From: a virus | Taxonomy: Duplodnaviria; Heunggongvirae; Uroviricota; Caudoviricetes | Reading direction: 5' to 3' (one strand) | IMG/VR virus record: IMGVR_UViG_2879736954_000011 | DNA: 17,009 nt | Shown here: piece after piece, positions 1 to 10,668 of the stretch | How positions within the stretch are numbered: position 1 is the first letter of the stretch | How the letters are laid out: the number at the start of each line of letters is the position of its first letter | Notes under the pieces: generated by a model | What the model was told of the DNA's origin: nothing | The model's database searches: none | Seen by the model: the letters and a program-made list of their open reading frames with translations, nothing else | Position numbers and translations under genes: made by a program

Positions 1-819
1 ATGTGTCAGGTATTTGGTGTATCCAGGAGCGGTTATTACAACTGGGTACAGCATGAACCCTCAGACAGAAAACAAAGTGATGAGCGGCTAAAACCGGAGA
101 TTAAGGTGGCACATATCCGCACTCGCGAAACATATGGAACCCGGCGGCTCCAGACGGAGCTGGCAGAGAATGGCATCATCGTTGGTCGTGACCGACTGGC
201 ACGTCTTCGTAAGGAGCTGAGGCTACGCTGTAAGCAGAAACGCAAGTTCAGAGCGACTACGAACCCGAACCACAATCTGCCAGTTGCGCCAAATCTGCTG
301 AACCAGACGTTCGCTCCTACAGCACCAAATCAGGTCTGGGTGGCGGACCTGACGTATGTTGCCACACAGGAGGGATGGTTGTACCTCGCTGGCATCAAAG
401 ATGTTTATACGTGCGAAATTGTCGGCTACGCCATGGGAGAGCGCATGACAAAAGAGCTGACAGGTAAAGCCCTGTTTATGGCGCTCAGGAGCCAGCGCCC
501 ACCTGCCGGGCTAATCCACCACTCTGATCGAGGTTCACAGTACTGCGCATACGATTACCGGGTCATACAGGAGCAGTCTGGTCTGAAAACATCAATGTCG
601 CGTAAAGGTAACTGTTACGACAACGCTCCGATGGAAAGCTTCTGGGGAACGCTGAAAAATGAGAGCCTGAGCCACTATCGTTTTAATAACCGGGATGAAG
701 CCATCTCAGTAATACGGGAATACATTGAGATTTTCTACAATCGTCAGCGTCGTCACTCTCGTCTGGGGAATATCTCCCCGGCAGCCTTCAGGGAAAAATA
801 TCATCAGATGGCTGCTTAA
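1..819 (+). CDS. IS3-family transposase OrfB (integrase/DDE catalytic domain), 5'-partial
   Basis: Translation contains the typical IS3 OrfB motifs (VSRSGYY HTH, LTYV...WLYLA...D, HSDRGSQY, CYDNA...ESFW, RRHS...SP); no credible upstream start, consistent with OrfAB frameshift fusion. Confidence 0.85.
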   Translation: MCQVFGVSRSGYYNWVQHEPSDRKQSDERLKPEIKVAHIRTRETYGTRRLQTELAENGIIVGRDRLARLRKELRLRCKQKRKFRATTNPNHNLPVAPNLLNQTFAPTAPNQVWVADLTYVATQEGWLYLAGIKDVYTCEIVGYAMGERMTKELTGKALFMALRSQRPPAGLIHHSDRGSQYCAYDYRVIQEQSGLKTSMSRKGNCYDNAPMESFWGTLKNESLSHYRFNNRDEAISVIREYIEIFYNRQRRHSRLGNISPAAFREKYHQMAA

Positions 820-831
820 AAAAGAACAAAT

Positions 832-861
832 GGTAGTGTCCGCTATTGCCAGTACACCTCA
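832..861 (+). repeat. IS right terminal inverted repeat (IRR)
   Basis: Sequence ...GGTAGTGTCCGCTATTGCCAGTACACCTCA ending in CA about 40 bp after the transposase stop; resembles IS3 end motif (CAGCAATAG.GGACAC) from memory. Confidence 0.5.
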
Positions 862-1569
862 ACTTGTGAAGGAAATGGTACTCAGGGGGATTCCAGTACA
901 GGTGGTGCGCAATTAGCTATAAATGGCCTTAACGGTTCGTGCGCTTTGGTATTAAACAACCCATACTTTGAGGCTAATGCCGGGGGGGCAGACCTTGCTA
1001 TAGATAATACTGGGACGCGCCCTGTAACTGTGGTTATAAACGGTGGAAATTTTCATCGCGTGAGCAGTGCAAGATACACGCACACGAATATTCAAGTAAC
1101 AAGCTCAGGTGGGGGAAAAGTTACAGTCATACTCAACGGCACAACGTTCCAGAGCGCAGGGGATTATCAGCCAAGTGCAGAACGACCATACTGGATAACA
1201 GGAGCTAATTGCGAGGTAGTTGACATTGGGTGTGTTTTTACAGAAACAACCAGTAAGGTAACATCGGCTTCTGCATTGTCAGTCACACGCTCGGGAAAAA
1301 TTAACGCCAATGGTAGTATCGACGTTGCTACTGGTGTTTCATCGGTTAACGTGGTTTCTACAGGTGTGTATGATGTTAGCTTTTCTCATCCGCTCGCAGC
1401 AGTTGCTAGCGGTTATATTGTGCAGATAACACCTATATCTGCGCCTGATTCAGTTAGTTGTGATGTTACTTATATTGGCGTAGATACATTTAGGGTGACC
1501 CTGCGCAATACGCTTAGCGGGGCAGGAATCTCCAGTTCGTTTGCATTTAGCATTACCAGACTAATATAA
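862..1569 (+). pseudogene. Tailspike / tail-fibre protein, C-terminal fragment; 5' part displaced by the IS
   Basis: Frame 1 is open from the IS end to the stop at 1569 with no plausible native start (the ORF-track start at 946 is TTG); Gly/Thr/Ser/Asn/Val-rich repetitive composition; located just upstream of O-antigen modification gene and attP as in P22/Sf6-type phages. Confidence 0.4.
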
Positions 1570-1577
1570 ATACATTC

Positions 1578-1609
1578 GCCGCCCCATTTGGACATATATG
1601 TAGGGCGGC
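1578..1609. terminator. Hairpin between convergent genes (possible bidirectional intrinsic terminator)
   Basis: GCCGCCC (1578-1584) ... GGGCGGC (1603-1609) 7-bp GC stem, followed by T-rich tract TTATGTTTATTGTTTATT; the 18-nt loop is long, so the call is weak. Confidence 0.4.
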
Positions 1610-1622
1610 TTATGTTTATTGT

Positions 1623-2795
1623 TTATTGATTGTTGTTTGTTAATGTGGGTATTAATTCTTTTACTAAAGTTGTGGTTTGTTTTGTTAATTTGATGAATGG
1701 CGTCTCTATTAATTTAAAAGTTAGGCATGATGTGAACGTAATAAGAAATGCAGTTGTGCTTACCAGTATGATAAATGTATTTTCAGTGTAATTATTAGGA
1801 ATAATCCACGTCATTAGGCAATAAAGGAATATCCCATGCAGAAGGTAAACGCTGTAGGTAGTTTCTCCTAGCTTTCTGGTTATATTTAATCTTAATATTC
1901 CATACAAATCACAACCTGATGCGATAATGATAAATGTTATTCCACAAAGAATCAGTGGTAGCGGTGCGTAAGTTGTTTTGAAATACGTCATTTCAAAAAC
2001 CATTATCGCAGTTATTATAATTGGTGTTACTTTTGCTTTGGCAATTCCATTGACTATCTTTGATTTATTTAGCAAAAATGCCAGGAGCCCAAAAAGAAAT
2101 GATGCTATGTGTATTTTACTGAAAAATAAAATGAAAACAAATAGCGATATTGCGCTAATCATAACCATGTAAATACTGACTTTTCTTTTTATGAGCGCGG
2201 AAATTACCGGAAGAGAAAAATAAAAGAACCATTCATATACAAGTGTCCATGTTACAGCGGCATTGATAGTAAATGAATCTTTTACGTCATTAATGTTCGG
2301 CATACCTAGCGCAGTGAATGGCAACCACTTCATTATTGACACAAAAAGCTCTTCTGTGGATACCTGCATTCTCCATCCAGACTTAAAACCTACAATGATA
2401 AAAATGAGACATAGGCTAACTATGAACATTGGGGTTAATCGTAGTAATCTTGATACATAAAGCCTTGTCCAGTCCTGATCTCCAGAGATAATCTTTGAAA
2501 AGAACAGATAACCAGTAATCATAAAAAAGAATGACACACCAACTTGGCCTAAATTTGCTAACAGATTTGATGAAGGTGCTTCCCATACTCCAGATGACAA
2601 GTATCCATTCCAAATTGCTGCGTGATGAATAAGCACGAAAATTGCTAAGAACCCCCGCATTCCATCTATTTGATTATTCCTGCCGTGCTCAACAAGATTT
2701 ATTGGGGAAATTTTATCAAATAACCCCACAGCTAATAACGACATCAATATCACGGATGTTATTAATAATAAACTGTTAATTTCAATCATATGCAT
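1623..2795 (-). CDS. Acyltransferase family 3 (AT3) integral membrane protein; O-antigen O-acetyltransferase-like (Oac-like) seroconversion gene
   Basis: 390 aa, multi-pass hydrophobic protein; N-terminal NQIDGMRGFLAIFVLIHH motif (conserved Arg and His-His of the AT3 domain); strongly AT-rich gene in the position occupied by gtr/oac genes between tailspike and attP. Confidence 0.75.
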   Translation of the reverse strand: MHMIEINSLLLITSVILMSLLAVGLFDKISPINLVEHGRNNQIDGMRGFLAIFVLIHHAAIWNGYLSSGVWEAPSSNLLANLGQVGVSFFFMITGYLFFSKIISGDQDWTRLYVSRLLRLTPMFIVSLCLIFIIVGFKSGWRMQVSTEELFVSIMKWLPFTALGMPNINDVKDSFTINAAVTWTLVYEWFFYFSLPVISALIKRKVSIYMVMISAISLFVFILFFSKIHIASFLFGLLAFLLNKSKIVNGIAKAKVTPIIITAIMVFEMTYFKTTYAPLPLILCGITFIIIASGCDLYGILRLNITRKLGETTYSVYLLHGIFLYCLMTWIIPNNYTENTFIILVSTTAFLITFTSCLTFKLIETPFIKLTKQTTTLVKELIPTLTNNNQ

Positions 2796-3083
2796 GCTCT
2801 ATTACGCAATTAAAATTTCTCCAAGTATACTGACTTTTAGTTAATGATCATATAGTTATGTGTAACTGATGAAACAAAACGGAGACACACCAAGCTTTGC
2901 ACTGGATTGCAAGGCTTTGTGCTCTTCTGTGAATGTGTGGCTATATGTTTGAAGATCGTTGTGCCGTATTTGTGACATATATATGGCAACATCATGCATC
3001 AACTTTCTGTTTGTGTCATCAACTATAGCTTAGTGAATGCGGTTAATGCTTGCTAAAACAGATAGTTATGATTGGTGCTACAG

Positions 3084-3129
3084 ATTCGTAATGCGAAGGT
3101 CGTAGGTTCGACTCCTATTATCGGCACCA
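3084..3129 (+). other. attP core: 46-bp identity to the 3' end of tRNA-Thr (thrW) including CCA; not a complete tRNA gene
   Basis: ATTCGTAATGCGAAGGTCGTAGGTTCGACTCCTATTATCGGCACCA matches the anticodon-loop-to-CCA part of E. coli/Salmonella thrW from memory; upstream sequence does not continue as tRNA; int stop codon lies 15 bp away. Confidence 0.8.
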
Positions 3130-3143
3130 TTAAAATCAATAAG

Positions 3144-4307
3144 TTACACATCATTAGTACCTTCCTTATTTTTTGACTGGGACAAATTTGGGACCGATGG
3201 GTTCAGGATCGAGTCTATTTGCCGTGCGTGTTCGGTAAGGTGATTAGGTGCAAGGTGAGCATATCGACGAACCATTTCGATAGACTCCCAGCCTCCCATT
3301 TCCTGTAACACTGACAATGGGACTCCGGCTTGAACCAGCCAACTTGCCCAGGTGTGTCTCAAGTCGTGAAATCTGAAATCATCAATACCAGCCCGTCTCA
3401 GCGCCGCTTTCCAGGCTGTGTTTGCGTCATACCGCATCTTCCTTACTGTTGGCGCTTTCGTTCCGTCTGGTTTGGTACAGCTTTCCTTGTATACAAATAC
3501 CCAACGGTGATGATTCCCGATTTGTTTTTTCAATACGCGACATGCAGTATCATTCAGCGCAACGCCAATTGCGCGGTTTGATTTACTCTCTTCCGGGTTT
3601 ATCCATGCCACCCGGCGCTGCATGTCTATTTGTTGCCATTCAAGGTTGATGATGTTCGAGCGTCTTAAGCCTGTTGCCAGTGCAAATTCAACAACAGACT
3701 TTAATGGCTCCGGACATTCATCAATCAGCCTTTGTGCTTCATGAGGCTCCAGCCAGCGGATACGTTTATTCTTCGGTTGAGGCACTTTAATAATTGGTGC
3801 CTTATCCAGCATTTTCCATTCACGCTCTGCGGCTCTTAGCAGGGCCTTTATAAATGAAAGATGCGTAGCCTTCGTTGCAACGGACGCTGGTTTTGGCGTG
3901 TATTCTGGAACAGGTTTCCCTTTTTTTCTGCATGCTTCTGCCCTGAGTTTCCAGTTTTCCTCATGACGCCGGTTCGTCATTTTCTGCATTGCTGAATAAA
4001 TTTTTGATTCAGTAATGTCTTTTAGTTGCATTCCTGCGAAATGTTGAAGCCAGAATCCGATCCGGCTTTTGTCATCGTCCAGTGATTTTTTATGTGCTTT
4101 CTCTTCGAGCCACCTGACACACGCTTCCTCAAACGTCATATCAGGTATTTCACCAAGTTTGCTGACCCGCCATGCTTCAGCCTTTAGCTTGTCATGGAGC
4201 TCTGTCGCCTGCCTTTTGTCCTTTGTTCCAAGAGACTGTTTAAATCTTTTACCGTTCGGCAATGTGAAACTGGCGTACCATATTTCACTTCTGCGGAAGA
4301 GTGACAT
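3144..4307 (-). CDS. int: Tyrosine integrase, P22-type (thrW-specific)
   Basis: 387 aa; N-terminus [44 protein letters not shown] and C-terminal [17 protein letters not shown]...RYAHLAP catalytic region match P22 Int as I recall it; GAGG RBS. Confidence 0.9.
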
Positions 4308-4534
4308 TTTCTTTCCTCTGTTATGCCATCACCCGCGCTCACCTTGATAGTATGCAGCGGAGACTGAAGCGCCGCAATGCAGGCTTGTCGCGTTGTGAGG
4401 TAAGGAGATTTTGGTTTAGTGGGGTCTTTGCGTGTTGCCTGTAGGCGGCCTGTTCGTATCCAGTTGGTGGCGGTTGGTCTGGATATCTTAAGAAACTGAC
4501 AGGCCTCATCGAGTGTGAGGCTGTATGATTCCAT
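4184..4534 (-). CDS. xis: Excisionase, P22-type
   Basis: 116 aa from [31 protein letters not shown] (winged-helix Xis motif); overlaps the 5' end of int as in lambda/P22; the ORF-track start 30 nt upstream is probably not used. Confidence 0.8.
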
Positions 4535-4784
4535 GGTTACCTCTGCTTTTTGAACGCATGTCACGTAACTTCTTAATGTGTTCTGCCGTTTCGATCTCTT
4601 CTGCTATCCGATCTGCATCAGCTTTATTCACAGGTTCAAAGTCATGATTAAAGCGGAACATGCTGGCGATACATGTTCTGCCTTTTCGGATGTAGTGAAC
4701 TTTGTTGTGGGTAGAACGCAGGATTTTGCAGGGAGTGCCGTGGTGGTCGACGTACCAGGTGTTAGGCAAAATGATTCTGAACAT
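4506..4784 (-). CDS. Small hypothetical protein (DUF4222-like pattern)
   Basis: 92 aa, GAGGTG RBS before ATG at 4784; pattern ...HG...V..V..N.VHY.R.G...C...F...F.PV resembles small prophage proteins of unknown function. Confidence 0.5.
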   Translation of the reverse strand: MFRIILPNTWYVDHHGTPCKILRSTHNKVHYIRKGRTCIASMFRFNHDFEPVNKADADRIAEEIETAEHIKKLRDMRSKSRGNHGIIQPHTR

Positions 4785-4831
4785 TTTTACACCTCAGTTG
4801 GACGATGTTGAAATTTGCTGCCTTGAGGCCA

Positions 4832-5050
4832 TCACAGTCCCCATTGTTTGTTCTTAAGTTCGATCTCCTCCTGGCAACTTGCACAAGTCCGACAACCCTG
4901 AACAGCCAGGCGTCTTCGCTCATCTATCGGATCGCCACACTCACAACAATGAGTTGCGGATACAGTCTGGTAGTTCAGACGACGCATTTTTATTGCTGTA
5001 TTGCGCTGTAATTCTTCGATTTCTGATGCTGAATCAATGATGTCTGCCAT
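4832..5050 (-). CDS. TraR/DksA-family C4 zinc-finger protein
   Basis: 72 aa with CxxC-(17)-CxxC (CCECGDPIDERRRLAVQGCRTCASCQ), the phage TraR-like zinc finger. Confidence 0.7.
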   Translation of the reverse strand: MADIIDSASEIEELQRNTAIKMRRLNYQTVSATHCCECGDPIDERRRLAVQGCRTCASCQEEIELKNKQWGL

Positions 5051-5103
5051 CTTTCATTAATCCCTGAATTGTTGGTTAATACGCTTGAGGGTGAATGCGA
5101 ATA

Positions 5104-5126
5104 ATAAAAAAGGAGCCTGTAGCTCC
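5104..5126 (-). terminator. Possible intrinsic terminator on the minus strand
   Basis: Minus-strand GGAGC-TACAG-GCTCC hairpin followed by TTTTTT, immediately downstream of the 71-aa gene; short 5-bp stem. Confidence 0.35.
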
Positions 5127-5148
5127 CTGATGATTTTGCTTTTCATGT

Positions 5149-5364
5149 TCACCGTTCCTTAAAGACGCCGTTTAACATACCGATTGCCAGACTTAAGTGA
5201 GTCGGTGTGAATCCCATCAGCGTTACCGTTTCGCGGTGCTTCTTTAGTACGCTACGGCAAATGTCATTGACGTTTTTATCCGGAAACTGCTGTCTGGCTT
5301 TTTTGATTTCATAATTAGCCTGACGGGCAATGCTGCGAAGGGCGTTATTATGTTCTATTGTCAT
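5149..5364 (-). CDS. Hypothetical protein, 71 aa
   Basis: Internal ATG at 5364 with GTGAGG RBS, 8 bp after the stop of the upstream 250-aa gene; the longer ORF-track version would overlap that gene by 131 bp. Confidence 0.5.
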   Translation of the reverse strand: MTIEHNNALRSIARQANYEIKKARQQFPDKNVNDICRSVLKKHRETVTLMGFTPTHLSLAIGMLNGVFKER

Positions 5365-5371
5365 ATTGGCC

Positions 5372-6124
5372 TCACACTTCGAATGCCAGTTGAGGGGTAA
5401 AGACGTCCCGTTCAGCGTTGTAATTAAGTGAACTGGCACTGTTGAATGATTCAATGCGTTCCACAAGAACTTGCGTACGGGTTTCTTTACTTGCGGGAGC
5501 ATATGGCGAACCTACCCAGGATTTGTCGATGCCTATATTTCTTGCGACGTTCGTGCTGTCTGCAGACGAAAGCGGTACATGAGTAAAAATGTCTTTATTT
5601 AACATCCGTAACCCATGAATCTTGGTGATTGGGTAGCCGTACTGATCTACAACATGACGTATAAGATCGCGTAGTTTAGCCCGACACGCTCTCGGTCGTT
5701 TTGCATCGTATTCCCCCATCGAGCCGATGCAGACGCGGGGAAACTCATGGCACAGACGAATAAATCGCTCATCTGGTTCGTTCATGTGCCACACCGGAGC
5801 ACCAATAAATTTACCGTGAGGCCATGCCGCAATCAGGGCGTCATTCTCTTCACTGGTTCCGCCGATAACATCCGGGATAACCGCGAATGAGAAACGAGGG
5901 TGATTGCCCCAGCGTTCAACAAATCTGTAATATTCATTCCAGTCTACGGCCTTGTTTTTTGTCCAGAATGTGAATGCACCATTATCAAGAGCAAATGATT
6001 GGGTGACTTCGGAAGCCAGATCAATCTGAGCTGGATTAGCAAAACTGATGAATGCGTGTCTGCCTTTCCAGGCTTTCAACGCACAGGTATCGGGAGTTAT
6101 TGGACCACCGTGAAAATGAATCAT
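5372..6124 (-). CDS. Hypothetical protein with tRNA-guanine transglycosylase (TGT)-like motifs; candidate DpdA-like 7-deazaguanine DNA transglycosylase
   Basis: 250 aa; GGGAGAG RBS; collinear motifs resembling bacterial TGT: FISFAN (cf ILGNTF), LDNGAF (cf TDSGGF, catalytic Asp), FAVIPDV (cf IVMIFDE), CIGSMGE (cf AVGGLAVGE), IHGL (cf LMGVG), NVARN (cf RNARN); no C-terminal Zn subdomain. By-eye comparison only. Confidence 0.4.
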   Translation of the reverse strand: MIHFHGGPITPDTCALKAWKGRHAFISFANPAQIDLASEVTQSFALDNGAFTFWTKNKAVDWNEYYRFVERWGNHPRFSFAVIPDVIGGTSEENDALIAAWPHGKFIGAPVWHMNEPDERFIRLCHEFPRVCIGSMGEYDAKRPRACRAKLRDLIRHVVDQYGYPITKIHGLRMLNKDIFTHVPLSSADSTNVARNIGIDKSWVGSPYAPASKETRTQVLVERIESFNSASSLNYNAERDVFTPQLAFEV

Positions 6125-6279
6125 ACACTCTCCCGTTTATTATTTATCTCCTCAGCCAGCCGCTGGGCTTTCAGCGGATTTCGGATAACAGAAAGGCCGG
6201 GAAATACCCAGCCTCGCTTTGTAACGGAGTAGACGAAAGTGATCGCGCCTACCCGGATATTATCGTGAGGATGCTTCAT
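6121..6279 (-). CDS. Small protein resembling lambda orf60a (52 aa here)
   Basis: [52 protein letters not shown]; ATGA overlaps with exo stop upstream and with the 250-aa gene start downstream (translational coupling). Confidence 0.5.
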
Positions 6280-6956
6280 CGCCATTGCTCCCCAAATACA
6301 AAACCAATTTCAGCCAGTGCCTCGTCCATTTTTTCGATGAACTCCGGCACCATCTCGTCAAAACTCGCCATGTAATTTTCATCCCGCTCAACCACGACAT
6401 AATGCAGGCCTTCACGCTTCATTCGTGGGTCATAGTTGGCAAAGTACCAGGCATCTTTTCGCGTTACCCACATGCTGTACTGCACCTGGGCCATGTAAGC
6501 CGACTTTATGGCCTCGAAACCACCGAGCCGGAATTTCATGAAATCCCGGGAGGTAAACGGGCATTTCAGTTCAAGGCCGTTGCCGTCACTGCATAAACCA
6601 TCGGGAGAGCAGGCGGTGCGCATATTTTCGTCGCGATAGATGATCGGGGATTCAGTAACATTCACGCCGGAAGTGAATTCAAACAGGGTTCTGGCGTCGT
6701 TCTCGTACTGTTTTCCCCAGGCCAGCGCCTTAGCATTAACTTCCGGAGCCACACCGGTGCAAACCTCAGCCAGCAGGGTGTGGAAGTAGGACATTTTCAT
6801 GTCAGGCCACTTCTTTCCTGAGCGGGGCTTTGCTATCACGTTGTGAACTTCTGAAGCGGTGATGACGCCGAGCCGTAATTTGTGCCATGCATCATCCCCC
6901 TGTTCGACAGCTCTCACGTCGATCCCGGTACGCTGCAGGATAATGTCCGGTGTCAT
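6276..6956 (-). CDS. exo: Lambda exonuclease (Red alpha)
   Basis: 226 aa, [43 protein letters not shown]... matches lambda Exo from memory. Confidence 0.95.
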
Positions 6957-7738
6957 GCTGCCACCTTCTGCTCAGTGGCTTTCTGTTTCAGGAATCCAAG
7001 AGCTTTCACTGCTTCGGCCTGTGTCAGTTCTGACGATGCGCGAATGTCGCGGCGAAATATCTGGGAACAGAGCGGCAATAAGTCGTCATCCCATGTTTTA
7101 TCCAGGGCGATCAGCAGAGTGTTAATCTCCTGCATGGTTTCATCGTTAACCGGAGTGATGTCGCGTTCCGGCTGACGTTCTGCAGTGTATGCAGTATTTT
7201 CGACAATGCGCTCGGCTTCATCCTTGTCATAGATACCAGCAAATCCGAAGGCCAGACGGGCACACTGAATCATGGCTTTATGCCGTAACATCCGTTTGGG
7301 ATGCGACTGCCACGGTCCGGTGATTTCTCTGCCTTCGCGGGTTTTGAATGGTTCGCGGCGGCATTCATCCATCCACTCGGTAACGCAGATCGGATGATTA
7401 CGGTCCTTGCGGTAAATCCGGCATGTGCAGGATTCATTGTCCTGCTCAAAGTCCATGCCATCAAACTGCTGGTTTTCATTGATGATACGGGACCAGCCAT
7501 CAACGCCCACCACCGGAACGATGCCGTTCTGCTTGTCAGGGAAGGCGTAAATTTCTTTCGTCCACGGATTAAGGCCGTACTGGTTGGCGACGATCAACAA
7601 TGCGATGAACTGCGCATCGCTGGCATCACCTTTAAATGCCGTCTGGCGAAGAGTGGTGATCAGTTCCTGTGGGTCGACAGAATCCATGCCGACACGTTCA
7701 GCCAGCTTCCCAGCCAGCGTTGCGAGTGCTGTACTCAT
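6953..7738 (-). CDS. bet: Lambda Bet (Red beta) single-strand annealing protein
   Basis: 261 aa, [48 protein letters not shown]... matches lambda Bet; 4-bp overlap with exo. Confidence 0.95.
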
Positions 7739-7743
7739 CCGTT

Positions 7744-8160
7744 TTATACCTCTGAATCAATATCAACCTGGTGGTGAGCAATGGTTTCAACCATGTACCG
7801 GATGTGTTCTGCCATGCGCTCCTGAAACTCAACATCGTCATCAAACGCACGGGTAATGGCTTTTTTGATGGCCCCGTGGCGTTGCAAATGATCGAAGCAT
7901 AGCGATTCAAACAGGTGCTGGGGCAGGCCTTTTTCCATGTCGTCTGCCAGTTCTGCCTCTTTCTCTTCACGGGCGATCTGCTGGTAGTGACGCGCCCAGC
8001 TCTGAGCCTCAAGACGATCCTGAATGTAATAAGCGTTCATGGCTGAACTCCTGAAATAGCTGTGAAAATATCGCCCGCGAAATGCCGGGCTGATTAGGAA
8101 AACAGGAAAGGGGGTTAGTGAATGCTTTTGCTTGATCTCAGTTTCAGTATTAATATCCAT
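7744..8160 (-). CDS. gam: Lambda Gam (RecBCD inhibitor), long form
   Basis: 138 aa, [61 protein letters not shown]... matches lambda Gam. Confidence 0.95.
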
Positions 8161-8258
8161 TTTTTATAAGCGTCGACGGCCTCACGAAACATCTTTTCAT
8201 CGCCAATAAAAGTGGCGATAGTGAATTTAGTCTGGATAGCCATAAGTGTTTGATCCAT
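8115..8258 (-). CDS. kil: Kil (host killing / FtsZ inhibitor)
   Basis: 47 aa [47 protein letters not shown]; overlaps gam start by 46 bp as in lambda. Confidence 0.85.
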
Positions 8259-8391
8259 TTTTTGGGACTCCTGGCTGATTAAGTATGTCGATAAGGCGTT
8301 TCCATCCGTCACGTAATTTACGGGTGATTCGTTCAAGTAAAGATTCGGAAGGGCAGCCAGCAACAGGCCACCCTGCAATGGCATATTGCAT
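8227..8391 (-). CDS. cIII: CIII (FtsH inhibitor, stabilises CII)
   Basis: Manual translation from ATG at 8391: MQYAIAGWPVAGCPSESLLERITRKLRDGWKRLIDIL..., 54 aa; AAGGAG RBS; below the ORF-track length cutoff. Confidence 0.85.
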   Translation of the reverse strand: MQYAIAGWPVAGCPSESLLERITRKLRDGWKRLIDILNQPGVPKNGSNTYGYPD

Positions 8392-8413
8392 GGTGTGCTC
8401 CTTATTTATACAT

Positions 8414-8440
8414 AACGAAAAACGCCTCGAGTGAAGCGTT
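8414..8440 (-). terminator. Terminator-like hairpin plus U-tract upstream of cIII (early-left operon)
   Basis: Minus strand AACGCTTCACTCGAGGCGTTTTTCG: stem then T5, just 5' of the cIII RBS. Confidence 0.4.
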
Positions 8441-8463
8441 ATTGGTATGCGGTAACGCCGCGC

Positions 8464-8832
8464 TCAGGCGGCTTTGATAGTCATATCATCTGAATCAAAT
8501 ATTCCTGATGTATCGATATCGGTAATTCTTATTCCTTCGCTACCATCCATTGGAGGCCATCCTTCCTGACCATTTCCATCATTCCAGTCGAACTCACACA
8601 CAACACCATATGCATTTAAGTCGCTTGAAATTGCTATAAGCAGAGCATGTTGCGCCAGCATGATTAATACAGCATTTAATACAGAACCGTGTTTATTGAG
8701 TCGGTATTCAGAGTCTGACCAGAAATTATTAATCTGGTGAAGTTTTTCCTCTGTCATTACGTCATGGTCGATTTCAATTTCTATTGATGCTTTCCAGTCG
8801 TAATCAATGATGTATTTTTTGATGTTTGACAT
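8464..8832 (-). CDS. ea10: Ea10 (lambda early-left protein, putative ssDNA-binding)
   Basis: 122 aa MSNIKKYIIDYDWKASIEIEIDHDVMTEEKLHQINNFWSDSEYRLNKHG... matches lambda Ea10. Confidence 0.9.
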   Translation of the reverse strand: MSNIKKYIIDYDWKASIEIEIDHDVMTEEKLHQINNFWSDSEYRLNKHGSVLNAVLIMLAQHALLIAISSDLNAYGVVCEFDWNDGNGQEGWPPMDGSEGIRITDIDTSGIFDSDDMTIKAA

Positions 8833-8850
8833 CTATTCATATCCTCACAG

Positions 8851-8879
8851 AAAAAAATTGCCCTCACACTGGAGGGCAA
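8851..8879 (-). terminator. Intrinsic terminator between ral and ea10 (minus strand)
   Basis: Minus strand TTGCCCTC-CAGTGT-GAGGGCAA (8-bp stem) followed by TTTTTTT, directly upstream of the ea10 RBS. Confidence 0.6.
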
Positions 8880-9034
8880 AGAAGATTTCCAATAATCAGA
8901 ACAAGTCGGCTCCTGTTTAGTTACGAGCGACATTGCTCCGTGTATTCACTCGTTGGAATGAATACACAGTGCAGTGTTTATTCTGTTATTTATGCCAAAA
9001 ATAAAGGCCACTATCAGGCAGCTTTGTTGTTCTG

Positions 9035-9214
9035 TTAACCAAGTTCTCTGGCAATCATTGCCGTCGTTCGTATTGCCCATTTATCGACATATTTCCCATC
9101 TTCCATTACAGGAAACATTTCTTCAGGCTTAACCATGCATTCCGATTGCAGCTTGCATCCATTGCATCGCTTGAATTGTCCACACCATTGATTTTTATCA
9201 ATAGTCGTAGTCAT
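9035..9214 (-). CDS. ral: Ral (restriction alleviation), 59 codons here; in-frame TAA where I recall Lys60 in 66-aa lambda Ral
   Basis: Manual translation from ATG at 9214: MTTTIDKNQWCGQ...RTTAMIARELG then TAA (plus-strand TTA at 9035-9037); remaining codons to 9014 read QNNKAA-stop in frame. Confidence 0.75.
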   Translation of the reverse strand: MTTTIDKNQWCGQFKRCNGCKLQSECMVKPEEMFPVMEDGKYVDKWAIRTTAMIARELG

Positions 9215-9284
9215 ACGGATAGTCCTGGTATTGTTCCATCACATCCTGAGGATGCTCTTCGAACTCTTCAAATTCTTCTTCCAT
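9198..9284 (-). CDS. orf28-like small acidic ORF overlapping the ral start
   Basis: GAGGTG RBS + ATG at 9284; MEEEFEEFEEHPQDVMEQYQDYPYDYDY (28 aa); overlaps ral by 17 nt. Confidence 0.55.
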   Translation of the reverse strand: MEEEFEEFEEHPQDVMEQYQDYPYDYDY

Positions 9285-9484
9285 ATATCACCTCAAATAA
9301 GTTGTTTGCTGCGAAAGTAAATACGCTTAAGTTACCTGTTATTTATTCCACCAAGTTCCGTATCTATCTATCCAGTTACACCAATCATCGACACTCCATT
9401 TTGTTGTGTCGCATTTTGGCAACTGGCATGAATATCTACCTTCTTTGTAAAGTCGGCGTTTGACTTTCTTGAGCATGGCTCACC

Positions 9485-9817
9485 TCAATCGTAATAAGCT
9501 GGAATTGATTTTCCGCGTTGCTTCTGGCGGCCTGAGCAAGTCACACCCATTTCACAGCGTGGCTTGCTGTACCATGTGCGCTGATTCTTGCGCTCAATAC
9601 GTTGCAGGTTGCTTTCAATCTGTTCGTGGTATTCAGCCAGCACCGTAAGGTCTATCGGATTCAGTGCGCTTTCTACTCGTGATTTCGGTTTGCGATTCAG
9701 CGAGAGAATAGGGCAGTTAACTGGTTTTGCGCTTACCCCAACCAACAGGGGATTTGCTGCTTTCCATTGAGCCTGTTTCTCTGCGCGACGTTCGCGGCGG
9801 CGTGCTTGTGCATCCAT
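9485..9817 (-). CDS. N: N antitermination protein (lambda N-like, divergent C-terminus)
   Basis: MDAQARRRERRAEKQAQWKAANPLLVGVSAKPVN... arginine-rich motif at N-terminus; AGGAGA RBS; about 90% identical to lambda N by eye, C-terminal tail differs (…GKSIPAYYD). Confidence 0.9.
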   Translation of the reverse strand: MDAQARRRERRAEKQAQWKAANPLLVGVSAKPVNCPILSLNRKPKSRVESALNPIDLTVLAEYHEQIESNLQRIERKNQRTWYSKPRCEMGVTCSGRQKQRGKSIPAYYD

Positions 9818-9927
9818 CTGGATTCTCCTGTCAGTTAGCTTTGAGTAACGCGCCGTGATGCTTATCTCCACGGTTGCTGTCTTGCAGCTGCATTTCGCGC
9901 TACTCAAAGCCTTCTGCTTTGAATGCT

Positions 9928-9958
9928 GCCCTTCTTCAGGGCTAAATTTTTAAGAGCC
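9928..9958 (-). promoter_or_regulatory. nutL (boxA + boxB) N-utilisation site
   Basis: Minus strand GGCTCTTA (boxA-like) then GCCCTGAAGAAGGGC (boxB hairpin) upstream of N. Confidence 0.8.
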
Positions 9959-9991
9959 TCACCTTCAATGGTGGTCAGTGCGTCCTGCTGA

Positions 9992-10062
9992 TGTGCTCAG
10001 TATCACCGCTAGTGGTATTTATGTCAACACCGCCAGAGATAATTTATCACCGCAGATGGTTA
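9992..10062 (-). promoter_or_regulatory. pL promoter with oL1-oL3 operators
   Basis: Minus-strand -35 TTGACA (10022-10027) and -10 GATACT (9999-10004); operator 17-mers TATCACCGCTAGTGGTA, CAACACCGCCAGAGATA, TATCACCGCAGATGGTT. Confidence 0.85.
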
Positions 10063-10206
10063 TCTGTATGTTTTTTATATGAATTTATTTTTTGCAGGGG
10101 GCATTGTTTGGTAGGTGAGAGATCTGAATTGCTATGTTTAGTGAGTTGTATCTATTTATTTTTCAATAAATACAATTGGTTATGTGTTTTGGGGGCGATC
10201 GTGAGG

Positions 10207-10233
10207 CAAAGAAAACCCGGCGCTGAGGCCGGG
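10207..10233 (-). terminator. Intrinsic terminator after rexB (timm-like)
   Basis: Minus strand CCCGGCCTCAGCGCCGGG hairpin followed by TTTTCTTTG, immediately after the rexB stop. Confidence 0.6.
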
Positions 10234-10668
10234 TTATTCTTGTTCTCTGGTCAAATTATATAGTTGGAAAACAAGGATGCATATATGAATGAACGATGCA
10301 GAGGCAATGCCGATGGCGATAGTGGGTATCATGTAGCCGCTTATGCTGGAAAGAAGCAATAACCCGCAGAAAAACAAAGCTCCAAGCTCAACAAAACTAA
10401 GGGCATAGACAATAACTACCGATGTCATATACCCATACTCTCTAATCTTGGCCAGTCGGCGCGTTCTGCTTCCGATTAGAAACGTCAAGGCAGCAATCAG
10501 GATTGCAATCATGGTTCCTGCATATGATGACAATGTCGCCCCAAGACCATCTCTATGAGCTGAAAAAGAAACACCAGGAATGTAGTGGCGGAAAAGGAGA
10601 TAGCAAATGCTTACGATAACGTAAGGAATTATTACTATGTAAACACCAGGCATGATTCTGTTCCGCAT
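10234..10668 (-). CDS. rexB: RexB (membrane component of the Rex exclusion system)
   Basis: 144 aa hydrophobic protein matching lambda RexB. Confidence 0.9.
   Translation of the reverse strand: MRNRIMPGVYIVIIPYVIVSICYLLFRHYIPGVSFSAHRDGLGATLSSYAGTMIAILIAALTFLIGSRTRRLAKIREYGYMTSVVIVYALSFVELGALFFCGLLLLSSISGYMIPTIAIGIASASFIHICILVFQLYNLTREQE

Follow-up and report, generated by a model that had tools for sequence, protein, structure and literature searches.

The stretch of DNA described here, 17,009 nucleotides of a tailed virus (Caudoviricetes; IMG/VR record IMGVR_UViG_2879736954_000011) that is referred to below in its full length as the window, carries one gene between orf60a and orf61 of a lambda-like early region, in the place that is taken in lambda by orf63. 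The gene (5372–6124, minus strand) encodes a 250-residue protein corresponding to gp34 of Shigella flexneri phage SfI (YP_009147480), with which the window is 100% identical over positions 4800–6500. The protein belongs to the stand-alone DpdA-type transglycosylases of the TGT superfamily, and its gene is the sole cargo of the region. We read it, with moderate confidence, as a short, zinc-less DpdA that occupies a swapped slot and puts 7-deazaguanine made by the host into the DNA of the phage.

Exchange of a Gene between orf60a and orf61

The limits of the exchange are evident from a blastn comparison with lambda (NC_001416). Positions 6122–7200 of the window correspond to lambda 31194–32272 with 97.1% identity, and positions 4855–5346 to lambda 30418–30910 with 95.1% identity; no alignment was returned for the stretch between 5347 and 6121. 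These 775 bp (5347–6121) stand in for 283 bp of lambda (30911–31193), which comprise orf63 (DUF1382), a hydrophobic open reading frame (ORF) of 27 residues (MTTTECIFLAAGFIFCVLMLADMGLVQ), and the opening codons of the orf61 frame. Gradual divergence, the alternative to a sharp break, is excluded by this alignment. On the exo side, the joint (6122–6134, minus strand) consists of four mismatches clustered at 6128–6133, followed by a common TGTATG that ends at 6122 and leads up to the cargo start codon, with no similarity beyond it. The product of the orf60a-like gene is identical to lambda Orf60a at residues 1–49, with the exception of T2K, and then ends with ESV and a stop codon (52 residues in all), in place of the GAVCTKHLLLS of lambda (60 residues), which makes it 8 residues shorter. 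The initial annotation, in which this C-terminal divergence had been noted and a recombination junction had been put at about 6125, was correct on both counts, on the latter to within 10 nucleotides. On the int side, the joint (5347–5364, minus strand) covers the first six codons of the 71-residue gene that follows the cargo; they read MTIEHN here and MTPQQE in lambda.

Orf63 and the 27-residue ORF have been exchanged for one 753-bp gene between orf60a and orf61, and the exchange is bounded by the exact start codon on the exo side and by a point six codons into orf61 on the int side. The gene order orf60a-orf63-orf61, the conservation of which had been suggested as a check on the break, is collinear with lambda in orf60a and orf61 and departs from it only at orf63. 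The mosaic joint is an ordinary lambdoid modular exchange. No compositional break in GC content is seen at the insert, and this property is uninformative on its origin.

The slot that follows orf60a is a hot spot of gene exchange. Escherichia coli LWY24, with a like gene order and closely related genes, has in it a 185-residue phage N6-adenine DNA methyltransferase (1793–2350 of the extracted locus, corresponding to window 5372–6124) that begins at the identical ATG after orf60a, and one start codon is common to all three fillings of the slot: lambda orf63, the Dam-like methylase, and the DpdA-like gene. On the int side, the LWY24 variant keeps the 27-residue ORF, whereas the joint of the DpdA variant extends into the start of orf61. 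Among 5,426 complete E. coli genomes, the methyltransferase variant is present in 244 and the insert in 100, every copy of the latter being chromosomal and at least 99% identical. At least 80% of the insert is present in 95 of these 100 genomes, and the 30 matches listed include no more than two truncated copies, with 71% and 58% of its length.

The 27-residue ORF is strongly hydrophobic and lies between orf63 and orf61 in lambda-type phages (at approximately 3420–3500, minus strand, of the extracted lambda locus). A 37-residue coding sequence annotated in Lambda_2E9 as 'Phage protein' (2642–2755 of the extracted locus) corresponds to it in position. Retained in the methyltransferase variant, this ORF is lost in the DpdA variant.

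Family and Fold of the 250-Residue Protein

The TGT-like character that had been proposed for the 250-residue protein is confirmed by its match to PHROG 887 ('queuine tRNA-ribosyltransferase', E = 4e-99), by a profile alignment with DpdA, and by its conserved residues. The family assignment is not new, as it was already published in 2019: YP_009147480 of Enterobacteria phage SfI (NC_027339) is catalogued as DpdA, together with the proteins of HK106, BTP1, SPN3UB, and 7-11, in Supplementary Data 1 of Hutinet et al. 2019 (PMC6884629), and is included there in a group of 76 phages that have DpdA but no preQ0 or G+ genes.

Aligned by hhalign, a profile of 51 sequences of the family matches DpdA of mycobacteriophage Rinkes with 98.3% probability (E = 1.3e-14), and the alignment brings five motifs into correspondence (LDNGAF/IDSGAY, IPDVI/ALDVI, VPVWH, KLHGL/ELHGL, and SADST/SVDSA). 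The Rinkes dpdA gene is located in a run annotated as GTP cyclohydrolase, dpdA, queC, queD, queE, and folE. Residues D47, H170, and D189 are invariant across the 51 sequences, down to 30% identity, and D85, H113, N48, S187, and S190 are at least 90% conserved in the same set; the alignment pairs D47, D85, H170, and D189 with D33, D69, H149, and D167 of the Rinkes protein. In the AlphaFold2 model (pLDDT 93.2, pTM 0.89), the protein is a (β/α)8 barrel, the closest solved relatives of which are enzymes of the TGT family, and the conserved residues lie at or just past the C-terminal ends of the barrel β-strands. These residues may be equivalent to the set D95(+F99)/D130/H181/D256 that is essential in bacterial DpdA (PMC10164549), as well as to D73/D122/H226-D248 of Cap10. 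When the two are compared by motif, bacterial DpdA and gp34 are consistent both in the form D-x-G-x-F and in the spacing of these residues.

The family, which is uniform in length, forms 6,182 clusters when grouped at 90% identity and is reduced to 894 representatives at 50%. Two of its members, each found on one contig only, are fusions. The first, of 335 residues, joins QueD(PTPS) and a DpdA-like part in a single ORF (2840–3847 of a high-GC metagenomic phage contig), and the second joins a D12 Dam methylase to a DpdA-like part (5001–6266) in the early operon of a P2/186-like prophage, where it is flanked by a TraR-like gene and gpA. A gp34 homologue (67.6% identity, with a score near those of Salmonella P22-like phages) is also present in OR850331.1, a record of 1,719 bp labeled 'Staphylococcus phage SA 1298 Kay', which is probably a mislabeled or contaminant sequence.

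The Adjacent 71-Residue Protein

The gene that follows the cargo (5149–5364, minus strand) belongs to the lambda backbone. Sixty-six of its 71 codons lie within lambda-homologous DNA (95% identity), its product shares 90–97% amino acid identity with the copies in the other lambdoid phages and prophages compared, and the protein, described in the initial annotation as having no recognizable family, matches PHROG 303 (Orf61; E = 1.5e-33, profile positions 23–93). Orf61 is a product of the exo-xis region that has been studied in lambda and Phi24B and is predicted to be homeodomain-like, and the lambda protein has been described as truncated (PMC8614690). An A-run in orf61 of reference lambda (~3370 of the extracted lambda locus, lambda ~30869, aligned to window ~5305) is longer by one A than in SfI, Lambda_2E9, and PhiR5_1; this shifts the frame and yields a truncated Orf61 of 61 residues, the intact family form having 71–93 residues. 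It is only because of this extra A that the reference lambda Orf61 looks unlike the 71-residue protein in its downstream part. In RefSeq, gp33 of SfI is given as a 117-residue form (window 5149–5502, minus strand) that overlaps gp34 by 131 nucleotides; this start is probably wrong, because the PHROG match, PGAP, and the annotation of PhiR5_1 (a 216-nucleotide form) all back the ATG at 5364. The label 'cell division protein ZapA', found beside the insert in some E. coli genomes, is an alternative PGAP name of the same Orf61 protein.

The genes of this region had been taken for a multi-gene cargo block in which the 250- and 71-residue proteins would form a two-gene functional module, with the smaller one as a partner or regulator of the enzyme. 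The two genes are indeed adjacent, with a 7-nucleotide spacing and a Shine–Dalgarno-like box over the upstream stop codon, and each of the 95 E. coli genomes with the block has both of them. However, the flanks (orf61 plus orf60a) are present in 3,363 of the 5,426 complete genomes, as against 95 for the whole block, so that orf61, with ~95% nucleotide identity, is found in thousands of prophages without the enzyme, and in LWY24 the same orf61 comes after the methyltransferase instead. Relatives of Orf61 are found in 231 phage records and those of the 250-residue protein in 112, the two lists not having been fully intersected; the two genes stand side by side in only three of the 252 phage records that match window 4800–6500 (PhiR5_1 and the two records of SfI). 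In BTP1, RothD, HK106, Vibrio phage D105, 7-11, and Rinkes, the 2.5 kb around the 250-residue homologue contain no homologue of orf61. The contexts in these six phages include positions between Ea22-like genes, beside eaA, before xis, and inside the preQ0 cluster, and a search for a conserved partner gene around the 250-residue homologues found none. The proposed co-occurrence of the two genes accordingly fails: only the 250-residue gene is cargo, and it occurs independently of orf61. As a conserved module the pair is already refuted, and a role of the 71-residue protein as a partner or regulator, for which these data give no support, is extremely improbable.

Proposed Function and Alternative Readings

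Insertion of 7-deazaguanine into phage DNA is the likely function of gp34. A scan of positions 4000–8500 gave no promoter-like site on the minus strand and, because the cargo gene has no such site of its own and is packed against exo and orf60a, it would be expressed early after infection or induction. It inherits the old ribosome-binding context and stays in the early leftward operon with gam-bet-exo, which would be transcribed from pL, as in lambda, with N antitermination allowing read-through.

The substrate, the use of DNA as the target, and the biological pay-off that we infer are as follows. After infection or induction, guanines in replicated phage DNA would be flipped out by the enzyme, and D189, paired with H170, would attack C1' to give a covalent intermediate, with D47 serving as the general acid/base and the base being read by D47 and D85. 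To resolve the intermediate, the enzyme would then use a 7-deazaguanine base, preQ0 or one closely derived from it, that comes from the QueC/D/E pathway of the host. A supply from the host is proposed because the phage has no synthesis genes: FolE, QueD, QueE, and QueC are not annotated in the SfI region examined, nor are they listed for SfI in Hutinet 2019 (PMC6884629). Sparse dPreQ0 or dADG marks on the packaged DNA might blunt restriction in the next host. The base exchange would parallel the DNA methyltransferase found in the same slot in sister prophages. There are precedents for such chemistry, since DpdA of phage 9g, alone in E. coli, introduces host preQ0 into plasmid DNA (790 dPreQ0 per 10^6 nucleotides), and phage 7-11, with a singleton DpdA, carries 50 dADG per 10^6 nucleotides (PMC6884629). 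In our comparison, the 7-11 protein is 36% identical to gp34 over 70% of the gp34 length.

Several observations weigh against DNA modification by gp34. Phage 7-11 is the sole gamma-proteobacterial example measured, and only 0.02% of its G is modified; whether DpdA-only phages have modified DNA is difficult to predict, and their cluster may have diverged functionally (PMC6884629). Bacterial DpdA requires the ATPase DpdB (PMC10164549), and no such partner is present here. The best structural match of gp34 is Cap10, which binds a protein-linked nucleobase and not DNA. The structural zinc site of TGTs and bacterial DpdA, CxCx2Cx22H, is absent from gp34, which has four cysteines (14, 125, 132, and 147), none of them in a CxCxxC motif and none beyond 147, the motif of E. 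coli TGT being located at residue 302. The zinc motif is likewise absent from the Rinkes, 7-11, HK106, and BTP1 proteins. Searches with HMMER gave no direct link by hidden Markov model of gp34 or its 51 relatives to TGT/DpdA in Pfam (PF01702), NCBIfam, or PADLOC, nor in the PDB; the silence of the curated models is a limit of their sensitivity, because known phage DpdAs were missed as well. An hhalign comparison of the profile with E. coli TGT as a single sequence also returned nothing. The literature searched held no data on the chemistry of SfI DNA or on 7-deazaguanine nucleosides in it, and no experiments from the years after 2019 on lambdoid or singleton DpdA.

The similarity to Cap10 bears on a different reading, in which gp34 would be a transglycosylase with a non-DNA target, either host or phage tRNA or a protein-linked 7-deazaguanine. 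It might, for example, be a factor against the cyclic-oligonucleotide-based antiphage signaling system (CBASS), binding, stripping, or diverting the NDG-modified N-terminus of the type IV CBASS cyclase. The invariant pair H170...D189 (19 residues apart) resembles H226-D248 of Cap10 (22 apart), and the protein is small and lacks both the zinc site and the Ins8 DNA-binding insertion of bacterial DpdA; in addition, the related singleton phage 7-11 has next to no DNA modification (PMC6884629). The sequence-profile link, however, leads instead to the phage DpdA of a preQ0 cluster, the slot alternates between this gene and a DNA methyltransferase, and one of the relatives has such an enzyme as its fusion partner. 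The SfI region examined has no annotated gene for Cap9 or a CD-NTase, and nothing indicates that Shigella or E. coli hosts commonly have type IV CBASS. With these points taken together, we consider a non-DNA target of gp34 unlikely. We can also speculate that DpdA-like enzymes of the short, zinc-less, stand-alone kind found in temperate gamma-proteobacterial phages are not DNA preQ0 insertases but Cap10-like, with RNA or a 7-deazaguanine conjugate other than DNA as the target, for example in antagonizing deazaguanylation-dependent type IV CBASS. Such a generalization is quite unlikely; if true, it would explain the near-zero DNA modification measured in this phage group.

The low modification found in DpdA-only phages, very low in 7-11 and none in mycobacteriophage Orion (PMC6884629), would also agree with a catalytically idle or decaying passenger that has no current function, as would the dispensability of the exo-xis region in the laboratory (PMC8614690). 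On the other hand, the family is large and constant in length, the residues with a putative catalytic role do not vary even among members at 30% identity, the copies in E. coli are at least 99% identical and mostly complete, and the ORF is intact in a context compatible with the operon, all of which makes an idle passenger very unlikely. Modification of phage DNA with a host-made 7-deazaguanine is the reading that we retain.

Gene Order, Junctions, and the Downstream Hairpin

All genes of the region lie on the minus strand, within the early leftward run gam-bet-exo ... xis-int, and the tight packing in one early leftward operon that had been noted earlier is borne out. The backbone gene upstream is exo, encoding lambda exonuclease (6276–6956; Pfam YqaJ, E = 5e-30; PHROG 149), with 97% nucleotide identity to lambda exo. 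Its stop codon (6278–6276) overlaps the second ATG (6279) of the orf60a-like gene (6121–6279; DUF1317, Pfam PF07026, E = 2.1e-33; PHROG 1998), forming ATGA at 6279–6276. An alternative upstream ATG of this gene, at 6285, would give a product of 54 residues; the 52-residue form seems likelier, because the Pfam DUF1317 match begins at residue 3. The stop codon of the orf60a-like gene and the start of the cargo gene again form ATGA (6124–6121). The cargo stop codon (5374–5372), which is overlapped by a GAGG Shine–Dalgarno-like box, is followed by the spacer GGCCAAT (5365–5371), read directly from the sequence, and then by the ATG of the 71-residue gene at 5364. These junctions are as previously described, with the exception of the last spacer, which has 7 nucleotides and not 8. 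Further along are a 29-residue ORF (SfI gp32, 5057–5146; MKSKIIRELQAPFLLFAFTLKRINQQFRD), annotated in SfI and Lambda_2E9, and a gene for a 72-residue TraR/DksA-like zinc-finger protein (4832–5050; Pfam PF01258, E = 2.8e-9; PHROG 54). The latter is Orf73 of the exo-xis region (PMC8614690), and it shares 87% amino acid identity with an unannotated copy in lambda. Both belong to the backbone.

A pattern scan combined with folding places a hairpin at 5128–5110 (minus strand; 8 pairs, loop of 3), 21 nucleotides past the stop codon of the 71-residue gene and followed by UUUUUUAUUAUU, with the U-tract at 5109–5100. Its fold of −10.2 kcal/mol (z = −3.07) is equaled in stability by 3 of 200 shuffles, and the 4.5-kb region holds 11 terminator-like sites where 4.4 ± 2.2 are expected, a modest signal. 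With a GC-rich stem-loop, a U-tract, and above-chance stability, the hairpin has the features of an intrinsic (rho-independent) terminator and appears terminator-like, although pL transcripts with N antitermination would read through it. It is contained in the 29-residue ORF, whose protein is 100% identical in lambda, SfI, PhiR5_1, Lambda_2E9, and the E. coli prophage PigCaeca_1. Because its sequence is invariant in an alignment of four phages (SfI, lambda, Lambda_2E9, and PhiR5_1), the hairpin does not delimit a cargo block; it is real, as the initial annotation had it, but lies within the lambda-identical backbone and the 29-residue ORF rather than at a cargo boundary.

Over positions 3084–10500, the window differs from SfI (blastn) by 2 mismatches in 7,417 bases (99.97% identity). 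This homology ends at 3084; positions 1–3083 differ from SfI and, in place of gtrA-gtrB-gtrI, carry an acyltransferase-3 family ORF (1623–2795, minus strand), possibly an O-antigen acetyltransferase, and an insertion sequence integrase-core ORF (1–819). Because the left flank below 3084 is not that of SfI, the window is an SfI-like prophage and not SfI itself. No tRNA gene was found in window 1–4000. A scan with Rfam detected no RNA family in the block, the sole match in the window being the cIII thermoregulator (Lambda_thermo, 8346–8404, minus strand, 88.5 bits), which a cIII leader of the lambda type is expected to contain.

Significance

Little of this is new in kind, as it combines an ordinary lambdoid exchange with an enzyme catalogued as DpdA since 2019. 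The recombination joint and the TGT-like gene recognized in the initial annotation both stand, while the block, the partner or regulator role, and the hairpin as the end of the cargo do not. The locus owes its interest to the presence of this DpdA copy in ~2% of complete E. coli genomes and in temperate phages that are amenable to genetics, namely SfI and PhiR5_1, the latter of which grows on E. coli C. Additionally, orf63, the Dam-like methyltransferase, and DpdA on near-identical backbones provide natural near-isogenic comparisons for the question of whether a lone DpdA protects phage DNA by means of host preQ0. The question of function concerns the whole group of lone DpdAs and not only this locus.

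Comparison with Known Systems

The closest known relatives of gp34 are the singleton phage DpdAs of the gamma-proteobacterial cluster (Hutinet et al. 2019, group 3; 7-11, HK106, BTP1, and SPN3UB), in which gp34 itself is listed. Its identity is 67.6% with the proteins of BTP1 and SPN3UB, and 36–37% with those of 7-11 and HK106 over 70–78% of its length. Like gp34, the members of this cluster are stand-alone enzymes in hosts that make preQ0, and nothing sets gp34 apart from them; the cluster has no demonstrated activity beyond the dADG traces in 7-11.

The phage DpdA1 proteins of preQ0 clusters (Rinkes, and in the literature Rosebush, CAjan, and 9g) are another group for comparison. The Rinkes protein is likewise short and has no CxCxxC, whereas gp34 lacks the adjacent FolE, QueD, QueE, and QueC and has only ~25% identity to it. 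A tblastn search with gp34 returned only 11 Escherichia records; because of this, 9g/CAjan-type phages apparently fall outside the matches, the records not having been checked singly.

In turn, the DpdA of bacteria (PDB 7UI4), which belongs to the Dpd restriction-modification system, has 413 residues, compared to 250 in gp34, which lacks the zinc site, the Ins8 DNA-binding insertion, the DpdB ATPase partner, and a PADLOC DpdA match. Cap10 of type IV CBASS (PDB 9NTN) has 10% identity to gp34. Its operon, with a QueC-like Cap9 and a CD-NTase that carries an N-terminal G-rich tail, has no counterpart here, where the neighbors are exo, orf60a, orf61, and orf73; Cap10 is a member of a defense operon, whereas gp34 is encoded by a phage early gene. 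Finally, within lambda's exo-xis region, orf60a, orf61, the 29-residue ORF, and orf73 are collinear with the window, with 87–100% protein identity. The window differs from lambda in the loss of orf63 and the 27-residue ORF, in an Orf60a shorter by 8 residues, and in an intact Orf61, which is frameshifted in reference lambda.

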